A stretch of DNA of 64,000 bases from an uncultured Pseudomonadota bacterium (GCA_900321105.1 OOHL01000002.1:141656-205655), one strand, 5' to 3'. Positions 6,882 to 38,673 are shown, numbered from the stretch's first letter. The notes: generated from the sequence alone by a model not told the origin. A program made the numbers and translations.

Positions 6882-7060
6882 GTCAGCAAGAGTTTTGCTG
6901 ATGGGACTAGAAACCCATATAGCTTCGTCTGGAATGACGTTAAAATCTCCAACCTGTTGTGGTTGGAGGGTCGCGAATATATTGAATAAGCACGCAATTT
7001 AAGCTAAATTGTTTCTAGCCTCCAACCGCCCGATTTTTCTCTGGCGGTTCTTTTTGGTTT
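6882..7060 (+). ncRNA. Unrecognised structured cis-regulatory leader RNA, copy 1 (riboswitch/attenuator-like)
   Basis: Homologous to the minus-strand copy at 38425-38601 with compensatory changes; follows TGnTAAAAT at 6867-6875; ends in a terminator-like hairpin. Confidence 0.75.
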
Positions 7061-7079: not shown

Positions 7080-7787
7080 ATGAAACGTTTTTTAATATTA
7101 TTATCGATATTGTTTTGCACAACAGTATTTGCACATACCATTGAATGGTATGTCGATAACACACTGCTTTCAACGACAACATGCGAATCTGGGGATAACA
7201 TAACCCCACCAACCGCACCAGACAAGTATGGATATCATTTCATTAGGTGGATGAAATATACACCTGTTGAATATTTAGACATAAATCAGGGACCTTTTAT
7301 AGAGGTAAATTATCCGTTCAATACAGGAAGTACTTTTGAAACGAAATTATCAATATTAGGGGATATGTCAAACGATAATGGACTTTTTGGCAATACATGG
7401 AACACACAAAGTCTTTTGGTGGTTTTTGATAAAAACAAATTTAGATCATATTTTAGTAAAGGTATTGGTTTGGAAAACACAAAACAAATTTTAAAAAATA
7501 CTCCGTACACATTAAAAGTTGGTAACGGTTTTACTATTGTAGATGGTGTGACTGTTATTGGCACACCACTAAATTCGTTATCTGTATATAAATTAAAAAT
7601 ACCTTATAGCCGCTTATCTGGGACTTTTAGATTCTTTTATTTTAAAATATACGATAATGATGTTTTAGTCCGTGACTTTATACCTATTCTTGATTCAAAC
7701 GGCACACCGTGTATGTATGACAAGGTTCAAAGTGAAGTTTACTACAACGCTGGTACGGGTAATTTCATAGCAGGACCGGCAATATAA
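7080..7787 (+). CDS. Secreted protein, InlB-B-repeat-like N-terminus plus beta-rich (LamG-like) domain
   Basis: Signal peptide; TPPTAPDKYGYHFIRW; C-terminal KIYDNDVLVRDFIP...MYDKV...NAGTGNF. Confidence 0.6.
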   Translation: MKRFLILLSILFCTTVFAHTIEWYVDNTLLSTTTCESGDNITPPTAPDKYGYHFIRWMKYTPVEYLDINQGPFIEVNYPFNTGSTFETKLSILGDMSNDNGLFGNTWNTQSLLVVFDKNKFRSYFSKGIGLENTKQILKNTPYTLKVGNGFTIVDGVTVIGTPLNSLSVYKLKIPYSRLSGTFRFFYFKIYDNDVLVRDFIPILDSNGTPCMYDKVQSEVYYNAGTGNFIAGPAI

Positions 7788-7789
7788 TA

Positions 7790-8503
7790 ATGAAAATCAA
7801 ATCTGTATTTTTGTTGTTTATATTTATATCACAACCTCTGTTTGCTGATATGTTGTGTGATATATCCGTTGATAAATATCGTGCTCTGTATAAACCTTAC
7901 TCTTATACTTGTAGTTCTGGACAATATTTACCGGCAAATACTTTGGGATGTGTATCATGTCCAAATGGTTTTACATGTAATGGCGGAACATTTGAATTTA
8001 ATCCAAATTATTTTCAGGGTATTGATTTTGATGTCACAAACATATCAAATATACAAATGAACAATATATGTGCAGCAAATTTTCCATCCGAAATATTCGC
8101 CATATATGAACCAAACATTCACAATTGCACCACCGGATATTATTTACCCGCAAATGTGGATGAATGTACAATATGTCCCAAAAACAATTATTGTGTTGGT
8201 GGGACATATACCTTTAATGAAACATTAACCCAGGGTATTGAACAATGTGAAAACGGATATTTTGCACCAACTGGTTCCGCGGTTTGTTATCCGCATATAT
8301 TACATATTGATAATAATAATGTTTATTTAAAATCAGACAAAACAACAACGCCGTCTTTAAATATAAAAATTGGGGACGATATATTTTATGCAAATATGAC
8401 AACGATTCCGACAACCATAAATAATACAACCGAACAATATTTAAAAATAAAAAACGGCAACACGGTTTATTATGTGTGCGATGATACGGTGTGCGGGGAA
8501 TAA
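7790..8503 (+). CDS. Secreted Cys-rich repeat protein
   Basis: Signal peptide; two CxxGxYLPANxxxCxxCP...CxGGT repeats; C-terminal KTTTPSLNIKIG domain. Confidence 0.7.
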   Translation: MKIKSVFLLFIFISQPLFADMLCDISVDKYRALYKPYSYTCSSGQYLPANTLGCVSCPNGFTCNGGTFEFNPNYFQGIDFDVTNISNIQMNNICAANFPSEIFAIYEPNIHNCTTGYYLPANVDECTICPKNNYCVGGTYTFNETLTQGIEQCENGYFAPTGSAVCYPHILHIDNNNVYLKSDKTTTPSLNIKIGDDIFYANMTTIPTTINNTTEQYLKIKNGNTVYYVCDDTVCGE

Positions 8504-14724: not shown

Positions 14725-15204
14725 ATTAAATTCTTGCCTGCGGCGATTTGATAACCCCGCCATAACGCATCCAGAAGATTTATTCCATGTCATCCATGCA
14801 GATTCTAAATTCGGGTATACAGAACTGTAAAAATTCGGATTATTTACATATTTAACGACTGTTGAGTTTGTAAAATTTTTGACACCTATGTTGTAAGCCA
14901 AAGATACAAGTGCATCAAATTGATTCTGCGATAAAGGTACCGTTATATTTTCTTGTACACCACGTTCTGCCGTTGCAATATCAACGCGTAATAATTCGGT
15001 GGCTTTAGCTTCAGAAATCCCATTTTTAAAATCTTCGCCTTGCTTTATCAAATGTCCATAACCAATTGTTGCACCACGCGGCAAAGGTTCGTTTGTGTTC
15101 ACAGGTTTTCCGGTTTTATCGTCATAAATGATATGAATATTGCCGTATTTTACGCATCCTTCACATTGTTTCAAGAATAATATCCCATTATCACTGATTT
15201 TCAT
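14692..15204 (-). CDS. GH24 (phage-type) lysozyme
   Basis: LKQCEG, TIGYGH, LSQNQFDALVSLAYNIG, GLSNRR..E. Confidence 0.9.
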   Translation of the reverse strand: MKISDNGILFLKQCEGCVKYGNIHIIYDDKTGKPVNTNEPLPRGATIGYGHLIKQGEDFKNGISEAKATELLRVDIATAERGVQENITVPLSQNQFDALVSLAYNIGVKNFTNSTVVKYVNNPNFYSSVYPNLESAWMTWNKSSGCVMAGLSNRRRQEFNLFTNGGVWRY

Positions 15205-16288: not shown

Positions 16289-16533
16289 AAATTCAAAAAT
16301 CGGGTTTTATGCCCGATTTTTTAATTTTGCTAAAAAGCCCCACGAGGATTGCGCAAGAGTGTCAACGGCACGATATGTGCCGTTAGAAAACGAAGTTTTC
16401 GTTGGCGATAGCCAACAAGACACGCATGGCGAAAACGAAAATACACAATTAGAAAAATCATAAAAACGGAGTTTTTAAATACGAGTTTTTATAGATTTTT
16501 ATTATTGCGTATTGAGGCAAGCAAGTGGGGCTG

Positions 16534-16602
16534 TTTTCCAATACTTTCAGTGGTTCGTAAGTTAGCTGTCAAAAACACACACCGTTTCACACATTTACGA
16601 AC
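16534..16602. repeat. Intergenic repeat family A, copy 1
   Basis: ccaata..gttcgtaagttagctgtcaaaaac..cacatttacgaac; internal inverted repeat gttcgtaa/ttacgaac. Confidence 0.85.
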
Positions 16603-16655
16603 TTTTTACCGACACGCTTGACATTTTATGAGTTTTTTCTATAATATAGCGTGAG

Positions 16656-18042: not shown

Positions 18043-18069
18043 TAAACCGACCTTTTGGGTCGGTTTTTT
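18043..18069 (+). terminator. tyrS terminator
   Basis: aaaccgacc/ggtcggttt stem plus T-run. Confidence 0.75.
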
Positions 18070-18074
18070 CTTTG

Positions 18075-18143
18075 TTTCCCAATACTTTCAGTGGTTCGTA
18101 AGTTAGCTGTCAAAAACACCCACCGTTTTGCACATTTACGAAC
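18075..18143. repeat. Intergenic repeat family A, copy 2
   Basis: Near-identical to 16534-16602. Confidence 0.85.
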
Positions 18144-18152
18144 TGTTTATTG

Positions 18153-19586: not shown

Positions 19587-19704
19587 ATGACCCTGCCACT
19601 ATGAGTAGCAGAGCGATTTATCGCGATGCGTCAGGAATGCCGCACAGACACAACGTGCCGAGCGAAACTAGATAAAACCGCATTTTTGCGGTTTTTTTGA
19701 TTGG

Positions 19705-19773
19705 TTTTCCAATAATTGCACGAGTTCGTAAGTTAGCTGTCAAAAACCACCACCATTTCACACATTTACGAAC
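19705..19773. repeat. Intergenic repeat family A, copy 3
   Basis: Same core gttcgtaagttagctgtcaaaaac..cacatttacgaac. Confidence 0.85.
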
Positions 19774-19849
19774 TTTTTTCAGTTGCTCGTATTGATAATT
19801 TTGTATATTGGTATATAATTTATGCAGATAATACAATGGAGATACCAAA

Positions 19850-21865: not shown

Positions 21866-22447
21866 TTGCTAATTATATCATTGATATTACTGCCCGGTTT
21901 TGTCCGGGCAGAATCAACTGTGGTAAAAAAAGATAACAAAACAACAGAAATAACAGTGTCGGCATTGGATGCGGTTAAACTTGCTGGAAGGATGGTTGAA
22001 AACGGTGATATACATATTATATACGATGATAAAACAGGAAAACCAGTTAACACAAACGAACCTTTGCCGCGTGGTGCAACAATTGGATATGGGCATTTAA
22101 TAAAATCTGACGAAGATTTTAGAAATGGAATAAATGAAACAACCGCAACCGAATTATTACGCACCGATATCACAACCGCAGAACATGCAGTAAAAAATAA
22201 TATATCTGTTCCGTTAAAACAAAATCAATACGATGCGTTGGTGTCTTTGGCTTATAACATAGGTGCCAAGAATTTTGCAAATTCAACAGTTGTTAAATAT
22301 ATAAACAATCCGAATTTTCATAGTTCTGTATATCCAAATTTAGAATCTGCATGGAAAGCATGGAACCGTTCACAAGGTGAGATATCAAACGGTTTAATTA
22401 ACCGCAGACAAAACGAATGGGATATGTATAATCGTGGTATATATTGA
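21866..22447 (+). CDS. Chimeric GH24 lysozyme with an unrelated signal-peptide N-terminus; possible pseudogene
   Basis: Highly similar to 14692..15204 from IHIIYDDKTGKP onward, but lacks the LKQCEG segment. Confidence 0.65.
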   Translation: MLIISLILLPGFVRAESTVVKKDNKTTEITVSALDAVKLAGRMVENGDIHIIYDDKTGKPVNTNEPLPRGATIGYGHLIKSDEDFRNGINETTATELLRTDITTAEHAVKNNISVPLKQNQYDALVSLAYNIGAKNFANSTVVKYINNPNFHSSVYPNLESAWKAWNRSQGEISNGLINRRQNEWDMYNRGIY

Positions 22448-36061: not shown

Positions 36062-36204
36062 GGTTTTCATAATACAGTTTAAAAAAAAAAACACCCGCAA
36101 TTGCGGGTGTTTTTTAATCTCGGGTGCAGTCTAATTCTCCCCTGTGTGTGGGGGGGGGCGGAACGCCGGGGTGGTCTTTCCAAGTATTTGTATTCTCTTA
36201 CCAC

Positions 36205-36238
36205 CTCCCCCTGCGGGGACTCCTCCAAAGGAGGAGAA
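36205..36238. repeat. GC-rich REP-like palindromic element, copy 1
   Basis: ctccccctgcggggactcctccaaaggaggagaa; 32/34 identical to 36825-36858. Confidence 0.75.
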
Positions 36239-36247
36239 ATTTTAATT

Positions 36248-36274
36248 CCCGACACCACTTGCCGTGGTGTCGGG
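36248..36274 (-). other. Perfect 11-bp GC-rich hairpin downstream of the putative DGR variable region
   Basis: cccgacaccac-ttgcc-gtggtgtcggg, no U-tail. Confidence 0.65.
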
Positions 36275-36331
36275 CGCATTATCGTGTCACGCCGTGTCAC
36301 GCGTGTTCGTGCCACGGCCCTTGCGCACACA

Positions 36332-36802
36332 TCATTGCGCGACCGAACCGAACAGCCCGCCGCGCAAAGCGGCGTAGTCCCGGACGTAGGCACCGCAGTA
36401 AATCGTACAGTACGAAGCGCAATCCGAAGCACTCCCGTTGTCGTAGCCGAACGCCCAAAGCGAAGACACGGGATGAGTCAATCGACACCAACAATAACGA
36501 CCATATTTTTCGGAACCAACAACAAGATTTGTTTCGCCTTCATTATTTGTGTCCGTTAAACGCGCAACAGTGCCCCCACGGGATTTACCTTGGTTGCTGT
36601 TTAAACATGCACTGATACCATGAACGGTGCCCTGGGCAGACCAGGCCTTCCAGGTTCCCATAGTGTTATCGTATGTATAACTGGTGATACTGACACTGGG
36701 GTCTAAAACAACCGCAACCGTATCATCCGCTGCGCACATAGTGGTCGCGTATGATGACATTGTCATCATTATCGTTAATACACATATAAATATCTTTTTC
36801 AT
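36332..36802 (-). CDS. Secreted Cys-rich protein; putative DGR target (variable region ~36338-36481)
   Basis: Signal peptide; YCWC..W.F..CASYC..YC; 48 consecutive codons near the 3' end have no third-position A and are rich in NNC codons. Confidence 0.75.
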   Translation of the reverse strand: MKKIFICVLTIMMTMSSYATTMCAADDTVAVVLDPSVSITSYTYDNTMGTWKAWSAQGTVHGISACLNSNQGKSRGGTVARLTDTNNEGETNLVVGSEKYGRYCWCRLTHPVSSLWAFGYDNGSASDCASYCTIYCGAYVRDYAALRGGLFGSVAQ

Positions 36803-36824
36803 TTTTTCTTCCTTTTGTTTTATT

Positions 36825-36858
36825 CTCCCCCTGTGGGGACTCCTCCGAAGGAGGAGAA
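36825..36858. repeat. GC-rich REP-like palindromic element, copy 2
   Basis: ctccccctgtggggactcctccgaaggaggagaa. Confidence 0.75.
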
Positions 36859-36861
36859 CCC

Positions 36862-37377
36862 TTACCACACCGATTCAAACACTGCGTGTCTGAATCCAGA
36901 ACTGTTGGTTGCACCTGCCGGTGACAAACTTGAATTATGATTCAATGCCATTGCGTTCGCACATGCAGATGCACATGACGATGCACAACTTGATGATGTG
37001 GTATAATCATGCAAAAACACCCAATATGATGTTATGCCTGTTTCATAGTGATAATTTGTTGTGTCGTCGTCATCATATATCGGCCACATTTCACACCAAC
37101 AATATTGCCCCGCATCGCCTGCATTCGTATATAAATTCGTTTGCGGTGTCGCAAAAGTCCCTGAAATTTCATTACATGCCGCATAGCCTGTTATCGTTTT
37201 ATAATCGTATTCAACCGCCCATTGTTTTTTAGACGCAGTATTCGTCACATTTGCAACGGTGCCATTTACACCCTTTCTTACGACACCAACATACGTGTTC
37301 AATTTTGCACATATTGTGTATGCGTGTGCTGAATATATTCCCATTATCATTATCAAAAATATCATTATGCGTTTCAT
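36862..37377 (-). CDS. Secreted Cys-rich protein, paralog of 36332..36802
   Basis: Signal peptide; G.AAC, YCWC..WVF..CASSCASAC..FR.AVF.SV. Confidence 0.75.
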   Translation of the reverse strand: MKRIMIFLIMIMGIYSAHAYTICAKLNTYVGVVRKGVNGTVANVTNTASKKQWAVEYDYKTITGYAACNEISGTFATPQTNLYTNAGDAGQYCWCEMWPIYDDDDTTNYHYETGITSYWVFLHDYTTSSSCASSCASACANAMALNHNSSLSPAGATNSSGFRHAVFESVW

Positions 37378-37488
37378 TGTTGTTCCTTCCTTTGTTTTTT
37401 ATCTCGGGCGCGGTGATGTTGGGCGGAACTTATAAGGTTCTTCCACCAGGGCAATTTTTTATAAAATTACTTCTTTCTTTTTCATCCT

Positions 37489-38403
37489 TTATTTCACCGT
37501 ATGGTATGTTGTGTTGTTATACTTTATATTTATCGCATCATCTGATGCACCGCTGACCAAATTCACATAACATACATTATTACCAACCTGTATATTCAAC
37601 GATGGCGTGATTTGTTTTTCTGAATACATTGGGAATATCAAGCCAGTTGATGTCCGTAATGTGGTATGTTCACCAGGACATATCGCGGCACATGTTCCGA
37701 TATCTGTATAATTTAATCCACCTGTGCATAATATCCCACATATTGCATCATCGGTATTTTCATCACATTGCTGATTTAAAAGAAATGTTTGATATCCACT
37801 GGCGCACGAACCATTTGTCAATGTTGCCATTGTGTTAGAATTTAACAAGATGTCTTGATAATTCGTTGGACAATCACCCGCAGAATATGTAGAACACGAA
37901 CCATTATTAACCTGAAACCCGTTATCGCAAAGTGTGACTTCTGCGCCCATTACGAAGCCATTATATACAGGATACACATCTTCTGGCATTTCTTTGGCAC
38001 TGTATCCACCTATTTTACATAACCCGTTATCCAAAGCCATAAAAGAAGATGAATTTAATTCCAAATTATCATCGTCTTGCTGACATGTGCCCTGGGTATA
38101 TGCAACACACGCACCGTTGTTCGGTGCATAACCTTCGTCACAAAGCGTGACCGCCGTTCCCATAACAAAACCATTATAAACCGCAACAACATCATCTGGA
38201 ATTTCCAATAATGCATAGCCACCAATTTTACACAAACCACCTTCAACCGCCATAAATGTTGATTCTGAAAAATCGGTATATTGTGTATCTATGTGTTTTT
38301 CAACACCCAATGTTGCATACCCAGATGGACAAGATGAAGAAAATCCAGCATTTACGTAAATAAATACCGATAACATAATAAAAAACTTGTAACCCCGTAT
38401 CAT
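37489..38403 (-). CDS. Secreted Cys-rich tandem-repeat protein
   Basis: Repeats of FMA...GLCKIGGY...VYNGFVMG..VTLCD; C-terminal KQITPSLNIQVG domain; SD GGGGG before ATG 38403. Confidence 0.72.
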   Translation of the reverse strand: MIRGYKFFIMLSVFIYVNAGFSSSCPSGYATLGVEKHIDTQYTDFSESTFMAVEGGLCKIGGYALLEIPDDVVAVYNGFVMGTAVTLCDEGYAPNNGACVAYTQGTCQQDDDNLELNSSSFMALDNGLCKIGGYSAKEMPEDVYPVYNGFVMGAEVTLCDNGFQVNNGSCSTYSAGDCPTNYQDILLNSNTMATLTNGSCASGYQTFLLNQQCDENTDDAICGILCTGGLNYTDIGTCAAICPGEHTTLRTSTGLIFPMYSEKQITPSLNIQVGNNVCYVNLVSGASDDAINIKYNNTTYHTVK

Positions 38404-38424
38404 TTGTCCCCCTGGCGTGTTTGC

Positions 38425-38601
38425 CAAAATAACCGCCAAAACAACAAAGGCGGTTGGAGGTTAAGAACAATTTAAAGACGAAATTGCACCGTTTATTCAA
38501 TATATTCACAGTCCTCCAACCAATCGTTGGAGATTCTTTTACGTCTTTTTCGACGGTCTTCAAATAGGTTCTTAAGCCTAATCAACAAAACCCTTGCTGA
38601 C
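38425..38601 (-). ncRNA. Unrecognised structured cis-regulatory leader RNA, copy 2
   Basis: Homolog of 6882-7060 with covarying helices, identical GAATATATTGAATAA loop and terminator aaccgcc/ggcggtt. Confidence 0.75.
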
Positions 38602-38673
38602 ACAGCAATTTTATAACAAATAAGTATTTAATTACAAGTAAAAAAATACCCGCATTTTGCGGGGAAACATAAA

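Follow-up and report, generated by a model that had tools for sequence, protein, structure and literature searches.

A structured leader RNA before three genes for predicted secreted cysteine-rich proteins, the last of them a remote target of a diversity-generating retroelement, in a gut alphaproteobacterium

The stretch of DNA considered here (the window, 64,000 nucleotides (nt), positions 141656-205655 of contig C3 of genome G000) belongs to an uncultured gut bacterium, Candidatus Enterousia, whose assembly comprises 874,442 bases in 6 contigs and is about 94% complete. A structured leader RNA lies on its minus strand, followed by three genes (g1, g2 and g3) that code for predicted secreted proteins rich in cysteine (Cys). 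The leader is accompanied by a sigma-70-like promoter and ends in an intrinsic terminator, and g3 is the target of a diversity-generating retroelement (DGR) whose template repeat (TR) and reverse transcriptase (RT) are found on another contig, C6. The reading that we consider likely is that of a single system made up of the promoter, an attenuator leader and three secreted Cys-rich genes, the last of which would be a DGR target in trans. A first-pass annotation had described this order of elements, with g2 as the constant paralog and g3 as the variable one, as well as another copy of the leader (copy 1) in front of a similar secreted pair; both arrangements are present in the sequence. The coordinates are given in Table 1.

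The promoter was located by a consensus scan downstream of the parC terminator and is composed of a -35 hexamer TTGTAA (38637-38632), an 18-nt spacer and a -10 hexamer TAAAAT (38613-38608). When upstream regions are aligned, a TTGnnn / TAnAAT pair is found at the same place upstream of 31 other leaders, the start site being a prediction only. Each of the three genes is preceded by a Shine-Dalgarno-like purine run, and the N-termini of the proteins carry one or two basic residues followed by a hydrophobic run, which were judged by eye only to be signal peptides. The spacer between g1 and g2 has 111 nt and that between g2 and g3 has 59 nt. About 215 nt of GC-rich sequence separate g3 from a bidirectional intrinsic terminator that closes the putative operon and is common to the converging plus-strand gene rpmG (L33, by Pfam).

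Table 1. Positions of the features discussed, counted from the first nucleotide of the window unless a contig (C2, C4, C6) is named
Feature	Position	Strand	Description
parC terminator	38663-38649		upstream of the leader promoter, same locus
Sigma-70-like promoter of the leader	38608..38637	-	consensus scan
Leader RNA copy 2	38424..38601	-	about 180 nt; 125.7 bits with covariance model R1
Copy 2, H1 and H2	38601-38581, 38580-38565	-	H2 loop 38575-38568
Copy 2, H3 and A box	38555-38542, 38532-38526	-	
Copy 2, B and C	38521-38513, 38460-38452	-	5' strand (B) and 3' strand (C) of helix P1
Copy 2, P2	38512-38488	-	conserved 15-nt loop 38507-38493
Copy 2, P3 and J3/1	38486-38468, 38468-38461	-	
Copy 2, terminator hairpin	38455-38431	-	U-tract 38430-38424
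g1	38403..37489	-	ATG start; 304 amino acids (aa), 16 Cys; secreted Cys-repeat protein (predicted)
g2	37377..36862	-	171 aa, 7 Cys; secreted Cys-rich paralog of g3 (predicted)
g3	36802..36332	-	156 aa, 8 Cys; secreted Cys-rich protein (predicted), DGR target
Variable repeat VR2	36339..36471	-	3' end of g3, residues ~113-155
GC-rich 3' flank	36205..36338	-	common to VR1 on C6; stem-loop and hairpin-repeat pair
GC-rich hairpin pair in the g2-g3 spacer	36825..36856	-	dispersed-repeat copy
Bidirectional intrinsic terminator	36086..36115	both	13-bp stem, T-runs on either side
Leader RNA copy 1	6882..7060	+	122.2 bits with R1; aligned with copy 2
Gene pair downstream of copy 1	7080-7787, 7790-8503	+	Flg_new-like N-terminus; Cys-rich, TPSLNI C-terminus
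Template repeat (TR)	C6:135678-135810		133-nt register with VR1 and VR2
Double-hairpin units	36205-36238, 36825-36858, C6:134197-134308, C6:134846-134879, C2:66657-66732, C4:35097-35208		GC-rich

The leader was analysed with a covariance model, R1, built from four leader copies of this genome; copies 1 and 2 show 80% mean column identity over 332 columns. In an RNAalifold consensus of 33 copies, helix P1 (formed by the strands B and C), helices P2 and P3 and part of the terminator are predicted, with 22 pairs, 15 of which show compensatory double changes. Distant copies even swap P1 wholesale, from the GGUUGGAGG type to the GGUCAGGAG and GGUCGGGG types, and the complement follows. Upstream there are three hairpins (H1-H3), of which the consensus keeps H1 and H2. 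At the other end, 62 of 68 leaders have a hairpin that starts within the last 3-5 nt of C, with 5 or more U among the 8 nt after it.

Further pairings were counted by scripts in these 68 leaders, taking the corresponding segments of other leaders as controls. The A box, sought in the 34 nt upstream, makes at least 7 Watson-Crick pairs with the leader's own B in 37 leaders and at least 6 in 45, the control mean being 3.0-4.7 per leader, and the box changes together with B. The loop of H2 makes at least 7 pairs with J3/1, the 9 nt before C, in 54 leaders, among which the J3/1 segment takes 42 distinct sequences over the set; the mean is 6.9 pairs with the own J3/1 vs 4.6 with those of other leaders. 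In the same way, the loop of P3 makes at least 6 pairs with the segment between H2 and the A box in 46 leaders (mean 6.1, control 4.2).

Since the pairings of B with A and with C are incompatible, and C serves either to close P1 or as the base of the terminator, the leader has two exclusive states. The unconstrained fold of copy 2 corresponds to the A:B pairing plus the terminator (-71.2 kcal/mol), and the fold in which P1 is forced reaches -60.2 kcal/mol with pseudoknots given no credit. The outermost B:C pair (49/110) covaries as well, and in one such leader, L038, this happens without a matching change of the A box (by eye). Because B covaries with A and this outermost pair covaries independently of the A box, both states seem to be under selection. 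The leader is thus built like a switch, as a real RNA that has a conserved fold, a terminator and pairings that exclude each other, and the covariation, the terminator kept in most copies and the exclusivity of A:B and B:C uphold what had been supposed of it from its first description. These features point to a switch of the attenuator type, which would terminate by default and would need a factor that stabilises the junction fold, and the nearly invariant 15-nt loop of P2 would be the obvious contact for such a factor. A leader peptide was also considered and rejected by eye: the only candidate reading frame, opening with a UUG of the P2 loop, has 7 codons before its stop in copy 1 and continues in copy 2.

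In its own genome, R1 finds four strong copies (104-126 bits) and two weak ones on C2 and C4 (24.8 and 26.8 bits), all at E<0.01, a number well beyond what chance would give. The four G000 copies (c1-c4) have four distinct pairs of H2 loop and J3/1, and three of the four have the same B and C boxes and the same P2 loop. The long-range contacts look copy-specific. The genes that follow copy 1 have sub-threshold family matches only, to Flg_new (the 7080 protein) and to DUF7631 (the 7790 protein). Leader-plus-pair units paralogous to this one are located on C5, C2 and C4, where the weak copies of C2 and C4 adjoin homologs of the 7080/7790 pair, and a cassette adjacent to the DGR on C6 is also headed by a leader. 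All six matches in this genome head operons of these protein families.

The distribution of the leader was then surveyed with R1 (E≤0.1) in a draw of 60 relatives plus G000. It is present in 52 of the 61 genomes: 35 of the 36 sampled in the genus have it, with a range of 1 to 48 matches in each, as do 16 of the 24 that belong to the same order but to other genera. An open reading frame (ORF) of at least 70 aa begins within 200 nt downstream of 26 out of 33 leaders (30 genomes); by eye, 16 of these 26 have a signal-like start, 9 are small helix-turn-helix (HTH) proteins and 1 is neither. The four HTH proteins scanned all match HTH_31 (E≤2.4e-4), and one of them passes the curated cut-off. Small XRE-type HTH proteins of 72-108 aa stand 3' of leaders in other Enterousia genomes (loci L033-L061), with HTH_31 or HTH_3 in 4/4 tested, and in such genomes the leader also precedes genes for proteins resembling outer-membrane proteins (OMP-like) and for other secreted proteins. 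Because XRE-type HTH, OMP-like and other secreted genes are leader-headed as well, the leader is not specific to the Cys-rich families; as a gate it would be a general one, serving many families of genes and not the cassette in particular.

Such a distribution could also be that of a promoter-bearing repeat which has spread with surface-protein genes, or as a small mobile element, and whose likeness from copy to copy reflects shared descent only, the leader having no regulatory role. The wide variation in copy number within one genus, the leader's own promoter and its place before unrelated gene families are all compatible with this. Shared descent gives no compensatory changes, however, and 15 of the 22 consensus pairs show double changes; the many J3/1 sequences mostly have a matching H2 loop in the same leader, the P3 loops pair with partners of their own, A box and B vary in concert, and the terminator is kept in spite of differing stem sequences. 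A repeat devoid of function is for these reasons disfavoured, and we would give it hardly any credence beside a regulatory leader.

Among known regulatory RNAs, the adenine riboswitch of pbuE/ydhL contains a three-way junction and is of the ON type, the 3' strand of its aptamer helix P1 being common to an intrinsic terminator. The leader studied here is similar in being a 5' leader with its own promoter and a covarying P1-P2-P3 three-way junction, and in having a terminator stem that begins in the 3' strand of P1, so that P1 and terminator exclude each other. Unlike those riboswitches, it comes without a known ligand or an Rfam family at gathering score, and it carries an extra upstream anti-P1 box, two long-range pairings that vary from copy to copy and a long, conserved, AU-rich P2 loop. 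Besides, it reaches up to 48 matches in a genome below 1 Mb and stands before surface-protein and XRE genes, not metabolic ones. By analogy, the closest match in logic would be an ON-type terminator riboswitch to which an anti-P1 box has been added.

Comparison with Rfam leads to a different kind of RNA. In the window, the gathering score is reached by tRNAs only. When three leader copies were scanned alone, the top match on all three was sRNA-Xcc1 (RF02221; 30.6, 26.1 and 27.8 bits), which also matched once among 20 loci of other genomes (35.2 bits), and in all four matches the complete model (1-87 of 87) aligns to the core from B to C. C4 (RF01695) is absent from the matches at E≤10 on the three leader copies. 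A match to RAGATH-21 (22.4 bits vs a gathering score of 70.3, in one copy only) was treated as chance.

The leader might accordingly be seen as an RNA of the phage-C4 or sRNA-Xcc1 type, that is, one whose three-way-junction core is excised or serves in cis as an antisense module and is not a ligand-sensing switch; base pairing of its segments with matching boxes, within the transcript itself and possibly in other copies, would decide whether transcription or translation continues. We find this unlikely. The matches to sRNA-Xcc1 are consistent, extend over the full model and cover exactly the B-to-C core, but at 26-35 bits they stay far below the gathering score of 53 bits. The annotated record of phage P1 has a comparable layout (promoter, a1 and b1 boxes, c4 RNA, a2 and b2 boxes, icd-ant), with antisense segments in the interior of c4, and the leader likewise has two upstream boxes, the H2 loop and the A box, whose pairings with two core segments are nested. 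The downstream side looks different: in phage P1 the second pair of boxes covers the icd ribosome site, whereas downstream of the leader core only C repeats the A box and there is no box over the g1 ribosome site (by eye). In the leader, one would-be antisense segment is a strand of helix P1 that has the other strand as its partner downstream, and after this comes an intrinsic terminator. By eye, neither copy 1 nor copy 2 repeats the H2-loop sequence downstream. Without filters, R1 does not match c4 (L105:2344-2420) either when run over the immI region of phage P1, its best score being 12 bits at 2088-2202. Many leaders do precede XRE-type HTH genes, as in immunity modules, and sRNA-Xcc1 homologs can be multi-copy too, with 7 in Xylella according to PMC12189769.

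The leader and these RNAs share a closing helix that encloses two hairpins, a location inside the leader of the governed operon, complementary boxes upstream and the multi-copy habit. On the other hand, the leader has roughly double their length, its 3' end is an intrinsic terminator and not a set of boxes over the ribosome site, and it is chromosomal, in an alphaproteobacterium of reduced genome. The likeness is therefore taken as one of architecture, perhaps of distant ancestry, and not as membership.

The second component of the system is the DGR. A search of the whole genome with the 3' stretch of g3 gave two matches on C6, of 81% identity over 286 nt and 88% over 132 nt. The same contig holds the single RT of the genome, as detected with Pfam RVT_1 (C6:136787-137335; 52.2 bits, cut-off 29.6), in an ORF of 342 aa (approximately C6:136545-137573) that in NCBIfam matches generic RT families only, all below their cut-offs. 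The order of the C6 locus is leader, g1 homolog, g2 homolog, g3 homolog, TR, an ORF of 108 aa and the RT. The 108-aa ORF lies directly upstream of the RT, has no Pfam or NCBIfam family and is found beside the RT in 12/12 loci of relatives with an RT match. The g3 homolog of C6 is 51% identical to the g3 protein of the window. As for the g2 homolog of that locus (L025:3311-3843 = C6:134434-134839), it matches g2 in two pieces that fall in different frames, so it is probably broken by a frameshift or a deletion.

The template, the variable repeat (VR) of the C6 target (VR1) and that of the window (VR2) align in one register. VR2 differs from TR at 17 of 133 positions, 15 of them TR adenines; VR1 has 17 mismatches, 13 at TR adenines. 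Of the non-adenine mismatches, VR1 has three out of four, and VR2 one out of two, within the first three boundary positions (by eye). TR contains 28 A in 133 nt (21%) and its reading frame is rich in AAC codons. VR2 ends 7 nt before the stop codon of g3, and TR, VR1 and VR2 do not differ over their last ~30 nt. The guanine plus cytosine (GC) content is 62% in VR2 and 58-62% in the 3' end of g3 and its flank, compared with 44% in the rest of g3. Downstream of both variable repeats, about 130 nt are nearly identical except for a 10-nt indel; this flank comprises an 11-bp stem-loop (36274-36248), common to VR1, and the hairpin-repeat pair (36236-36205), and it is likely, from its sequence, to be a cis element for retrohoming. 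No TR was found inside the window, and the 3' end of g2, which had been considered as template, was dropped once the true TR was located on C6. With the RT enzyme and the template on the other contig, g3 is a true DGR target, remote from both; the earlier label of putative target is confirmed by this TR and RT outside the window.

Variation within the protein family was assessed with 80 aligned relatives of g3, comparing pairs that are near-identical outside the VR. Ten pairs have 0-2 differences over 85-93 aligned residues outside the VR, and nine of them have 10-21 differences over 43-45 aligned VR residues (3 in the tenth pair). The VR differences sit where the template has AAC. From these comparisons, the g3 family appears to be diversified in nature.

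Remote targets, addressed in trans, are known from Mtd of Bordetella phage BPP-1, TvpA of Treponema denticola and LdtA of Legionella. The system of C6 and the window resembles known DGRs in its RT, small accessory ORF and AAC-rich TR, in the location of the VR at the 3' end of the target ORF, in mismatches that are almost only at template adenines, in having more than one target per template, and in the invariant GC-rich end of the VR with a stem-loop downstream. It differs in its target, a Cys-rich protein without a Pfam or NCBIfam family that stands last in a conserved cassette, together with a non-diversified paralog and with a structured leader at the head, and also in its accessory ORF, which matches no family. 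In the predicted model, moreover, the VR occupies the end of a strand and two C-terminal helices, and a C-type-lectin fold is not evident.

Regarding the proteins themselves, g2 and g3 are 28.6% identical over 154 aa (E 1.8e-8), and g2 contains nothing TR-like in a DNA search for which the 3' end of g3 was the query. None of the three has a match in Pfam or NCBIfam. For g3, 125 relatives were obtained at E≤0.01 from a large protein collection, where the source name is only 'hypothetical protein', and none of the 120 relatives listed has a Pfam family. An AlphaFold2 model of g3 from 80 sequences (pLDDT 86.9, pTM 0.76) has a sheet with some seven strands and, C-terminal to it, two helices, the VR corresponding to the last strand and both helices. 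Foldseek returned no match in the PDB at E≤0.001, an exhaustive VIA search gave a best Z of 3.8 over 41 residues, and the ESM Atlas had no usable match. Because of the first two of these results, the C-type-lectin fold is described as not evident in the model; a missing match is not proof of a different fold.

The g1 protein has two internal repeats of ~60 aa and a conserved, beta-rich C-terminal 'TPSLNI' domain (residues ~230-304). These ~75 C-terminal residues are the only confident part of its AlphaFold2 model (pLDDT 51.2 overall), whose sole VIA match has a Z of 2.7. Homologs of g1 head the cassette in relatives, where the position of g2 is conserved as well. In three loci (L062, L063 and L096) the g1 homologs end in a Listeria-Bacteroides repeat of the Flg_new type and not in the TPSLNI domain. 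As some homologs carry this repeat in the place of TPSLNI, g1 can be described as modular, with C-terminal modules that are swapped. Prediction of a complex of g1, g2 and g3 gave scores of 0.15, 0.33 and 0.00 vs a mark of 0.32, which speak neither for nor against binding.

The conservation of the cassette was studied by tblastn in other genomes, at 43 loci with a gene for a g3 relative. Homologs of g1 and g2 lie directly upstream of the g3 relative, on the same strand, in most of them, and the complete order leader-g1-g2-g3 recurs in 22. Where sequence is available upstream of the first cassette gene (35 loci), the leader is directly upstream and on the same strand in 27. In six loci that were read (L066, L068, L071, L073, L080 and L082), the hit boundaries of g1-g2 and g2-g3 are only ~18-33 nt apart. 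A pair of accessory ORF and RT stands 3' of the cassette in 12 loci, 10 with the pair on the cassette's strand and 2 with it on the other, many loci ending too early for this pair to be seen. Synteny and the absence of internal terminators suggest that g1, g2 and g3 would form one transcription unit.

From these data, the following sequence of events can be proposed. The sigma-70-type promoter would drive transcription of the structured leader and then of the three genes for secreted Cys-rich proteins. In the OFF state, favoured in the plain energy model, the 9-nt strand B would pair with the A box, which would free C for the intrinsic terminator. In the ON state, B would pair with C and close the P1-P2-P3 three-way junction, so that the base of the terminator stem would be removed and RNA polymerase would read through g1-g2-g3. 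The ON fold would be elaborated by the pairing of the H2 loop with J3/1, by that of the H2-H3 linker with the P3 loop and by the nearly invariant P2 loop, and a ligand or an RNA-binding factor would select between the two states. Among the products, the C-terminal beta domain of g1 is common to other leader-controlled operons, and g2 and g3 are paralogs. Finally, the DGR encoded on C6 (TR, 108-aa accessory gene and RT) would use mutagenic retrohoming, specific to adenines, to rewrite some 43 codons at the end of g3, and the GC-rich 3' flank that VR2 has in common with the DGR's own adjacent target would guide it there. A terminator-type RNA switch and a DGR with a remote target are known kinds of systems, here combined, and the leader family is undescribed.

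Several observations weigh against this model and have to be set beside it. Eight of the 35 testable cassettes in relatives have no leader match at E≤0.01. A further paralog of the g2/g3 family (C5:193497-193826, CWC-family, ~29-30% identity) has no leader match listed nearby, and its leader may have diverged or be absent. No complement of the P2 loop exists in the genome outside leaders at ≤1 mismatch. The A box is weak (3-6 pairs) in the subfamily with a GUCGGGG-type B, which heads many DGR-linked cassettes, and the alignments behind the pair counts were fitted to a model from four copies of one genome. The same can be said of the spacers of the window, which exceed those of relatives and whose hairpins might affect transcription or RNA stability, and of the constancy of VR2: contigs from two runs, which belong to two studies, carry the repeat with 0 other letters, and a protein identical to g3, found in 7 contigs, is the sole member of its 90% cluster. 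Since VR2 is identical across contigs, this copy shows no sign of present variation. Other letters do occur over the VR2 stretch, mainly in contigs of the TR or VR1 copies, which are recognised by their loose ends, and they are therefore uninformative on VR2 variation.

The long spacers with their stable GC-rich hairpins, and several promoter-like hexamer pairs inside the region, would also fit g1, g2 and g3 being separately transcribed neighbours, of which the leader controls g1 alone. It is quite improbable that this is so. The promoter-like matches in the g1-g3 region are not above those of shuffled sequences (10 vs 7.8 +/- 3.2), no terminator-like site occurs on the minus strand between 38403 and 36332, and the hairpin pair of the g2-g3 spacer, a direct repeat (D19) 94% identical to 36205-36238, has no U-tract after it. 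The spacer hairpins are copies of a dispersed repeat that is found elsewhere in the genome, and the window spacers are longer than those of relatives because such units have been inserted; in the six loci of relatives mentioned above, the gaps are short, and the leader-g1-g2-g3 order is kept in the 22 loci. The repeat itself is a GC-rich double-hairpin unit, with a CTCCTCC..GGAGGAG hairpin followed by TCCCC..GGGGGAG, and it occurs around Cys-rich genes and elsewhere.

The constancy of VR2 raises the question of whether the g3 of the window is a former DGR target, no longer diversified, in a cassette that is a duplicate of that of C6 and whose VR froze after one or a few homings. The position of RT and TR on another contig would agree with this, as would the identity of VR2 between studies and the isolation of the g3 protein in its cluster. 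The ORF of VR2 is intact, nevertheless, and its adenine-site differences from TR imply at least one homing event after the copies diverged. Furthermore, the invariant GC-rich end of the VR and the ~130-nt flank with its stem-loop have been kept near-identical to those of VR1, while the proteins have drifted to 51% identity. Contigs also drop rare variants, so that identity among them is compatible with variation within the population. A frozen VR2 seems to us improbable in view of these points, and a target that could still be diversified at present is the preferred reading for g3.

Concerning the host, the genome has a GC content of ~36-38%, and the g3 relatives with named records come from metagenome-assembled genomes of ruminant and horse gut, titled Candidatus Enterousia, Alphaproteobacteria or uncultured proteobacterium. 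The bacterium is accordingly assigned to Candidatus Enterousia, a gut alphaproteobacterium with a genome of ~0.87 Mb. Enterousia is described in PMC12306168 as uncultured, with genomes below 1 Mb and lacking respiration and standard transporters; in the main text of that article, the words 'diversity-generating', 'retroelement', 'surface' and 'cysteine' have zero occurrences. A literature search with mixed terms yielded no DGR or RNA motif of Enterousia, which is a weak negative, as a small fraction of the matching papers was covered.

For such an organism, it is plausible from the predicted proteins that the cassette encodes a surface apparatus. A bolder proposal, which we put forward tentatively and as the less probable outcome, is that the leader represents a new orphan class of RNA switch, through which a gut bacterium that depends on its host and has a reduced genome would gate its surface-protein repertoire genome-wide. 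If it were true, a common sensor core, made of the B/C helix with the invariant P2 loop, would recur in dozens of operons, each of which would have a private 'address' pseudoknot pair; one signal could then turn on all operons, each leader folding with itself, or the copies could be switched individually. In the DGR cassettes, an on/off layer over hypervariation of the g3 type, in a target protein whose fold lacks a solved counterpart, would amount to two stacked levels of surface variation, and there would be at hand a high-copy, well-covarying orphan leader whose effector could be sought directly. To our knowledge, a regulator with up to 48 matches in a genome of less than 1 Mb would then be among the densest uses of one cis-RNA.

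For the biology of DGRs, the system would contribute a target family that has neither an annotated domain nor a solved structural counterpart. It would also provide a diversified subunit that is always paired with a constant paralog, and a clear case of a remote target kept competent by a conserved 3' flank. In Enterousia, these predicted secreted proteins, gated and diversified, would be its most likely handles on the partner on which it depends.

Some other features of the window deserve mention. Between 36079 and 36615, across the VR and its flank, long ORFs are open in several frames on both strands; they are due to the GC-rich, stop-poor composition of this segment and are not extra genes. 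Far from the cassette, near the genes for tRNA-Asp and tRNA-Glu, there is a 367-nt inverted repeat (14783-15149 vs 21999-22365, 81% complementary) whose arms are 6.8 kb apart, and also near these genes a direct repeat of 106 nt is present in three copies (16502-16607, 18043-18148 and 19673-19778).

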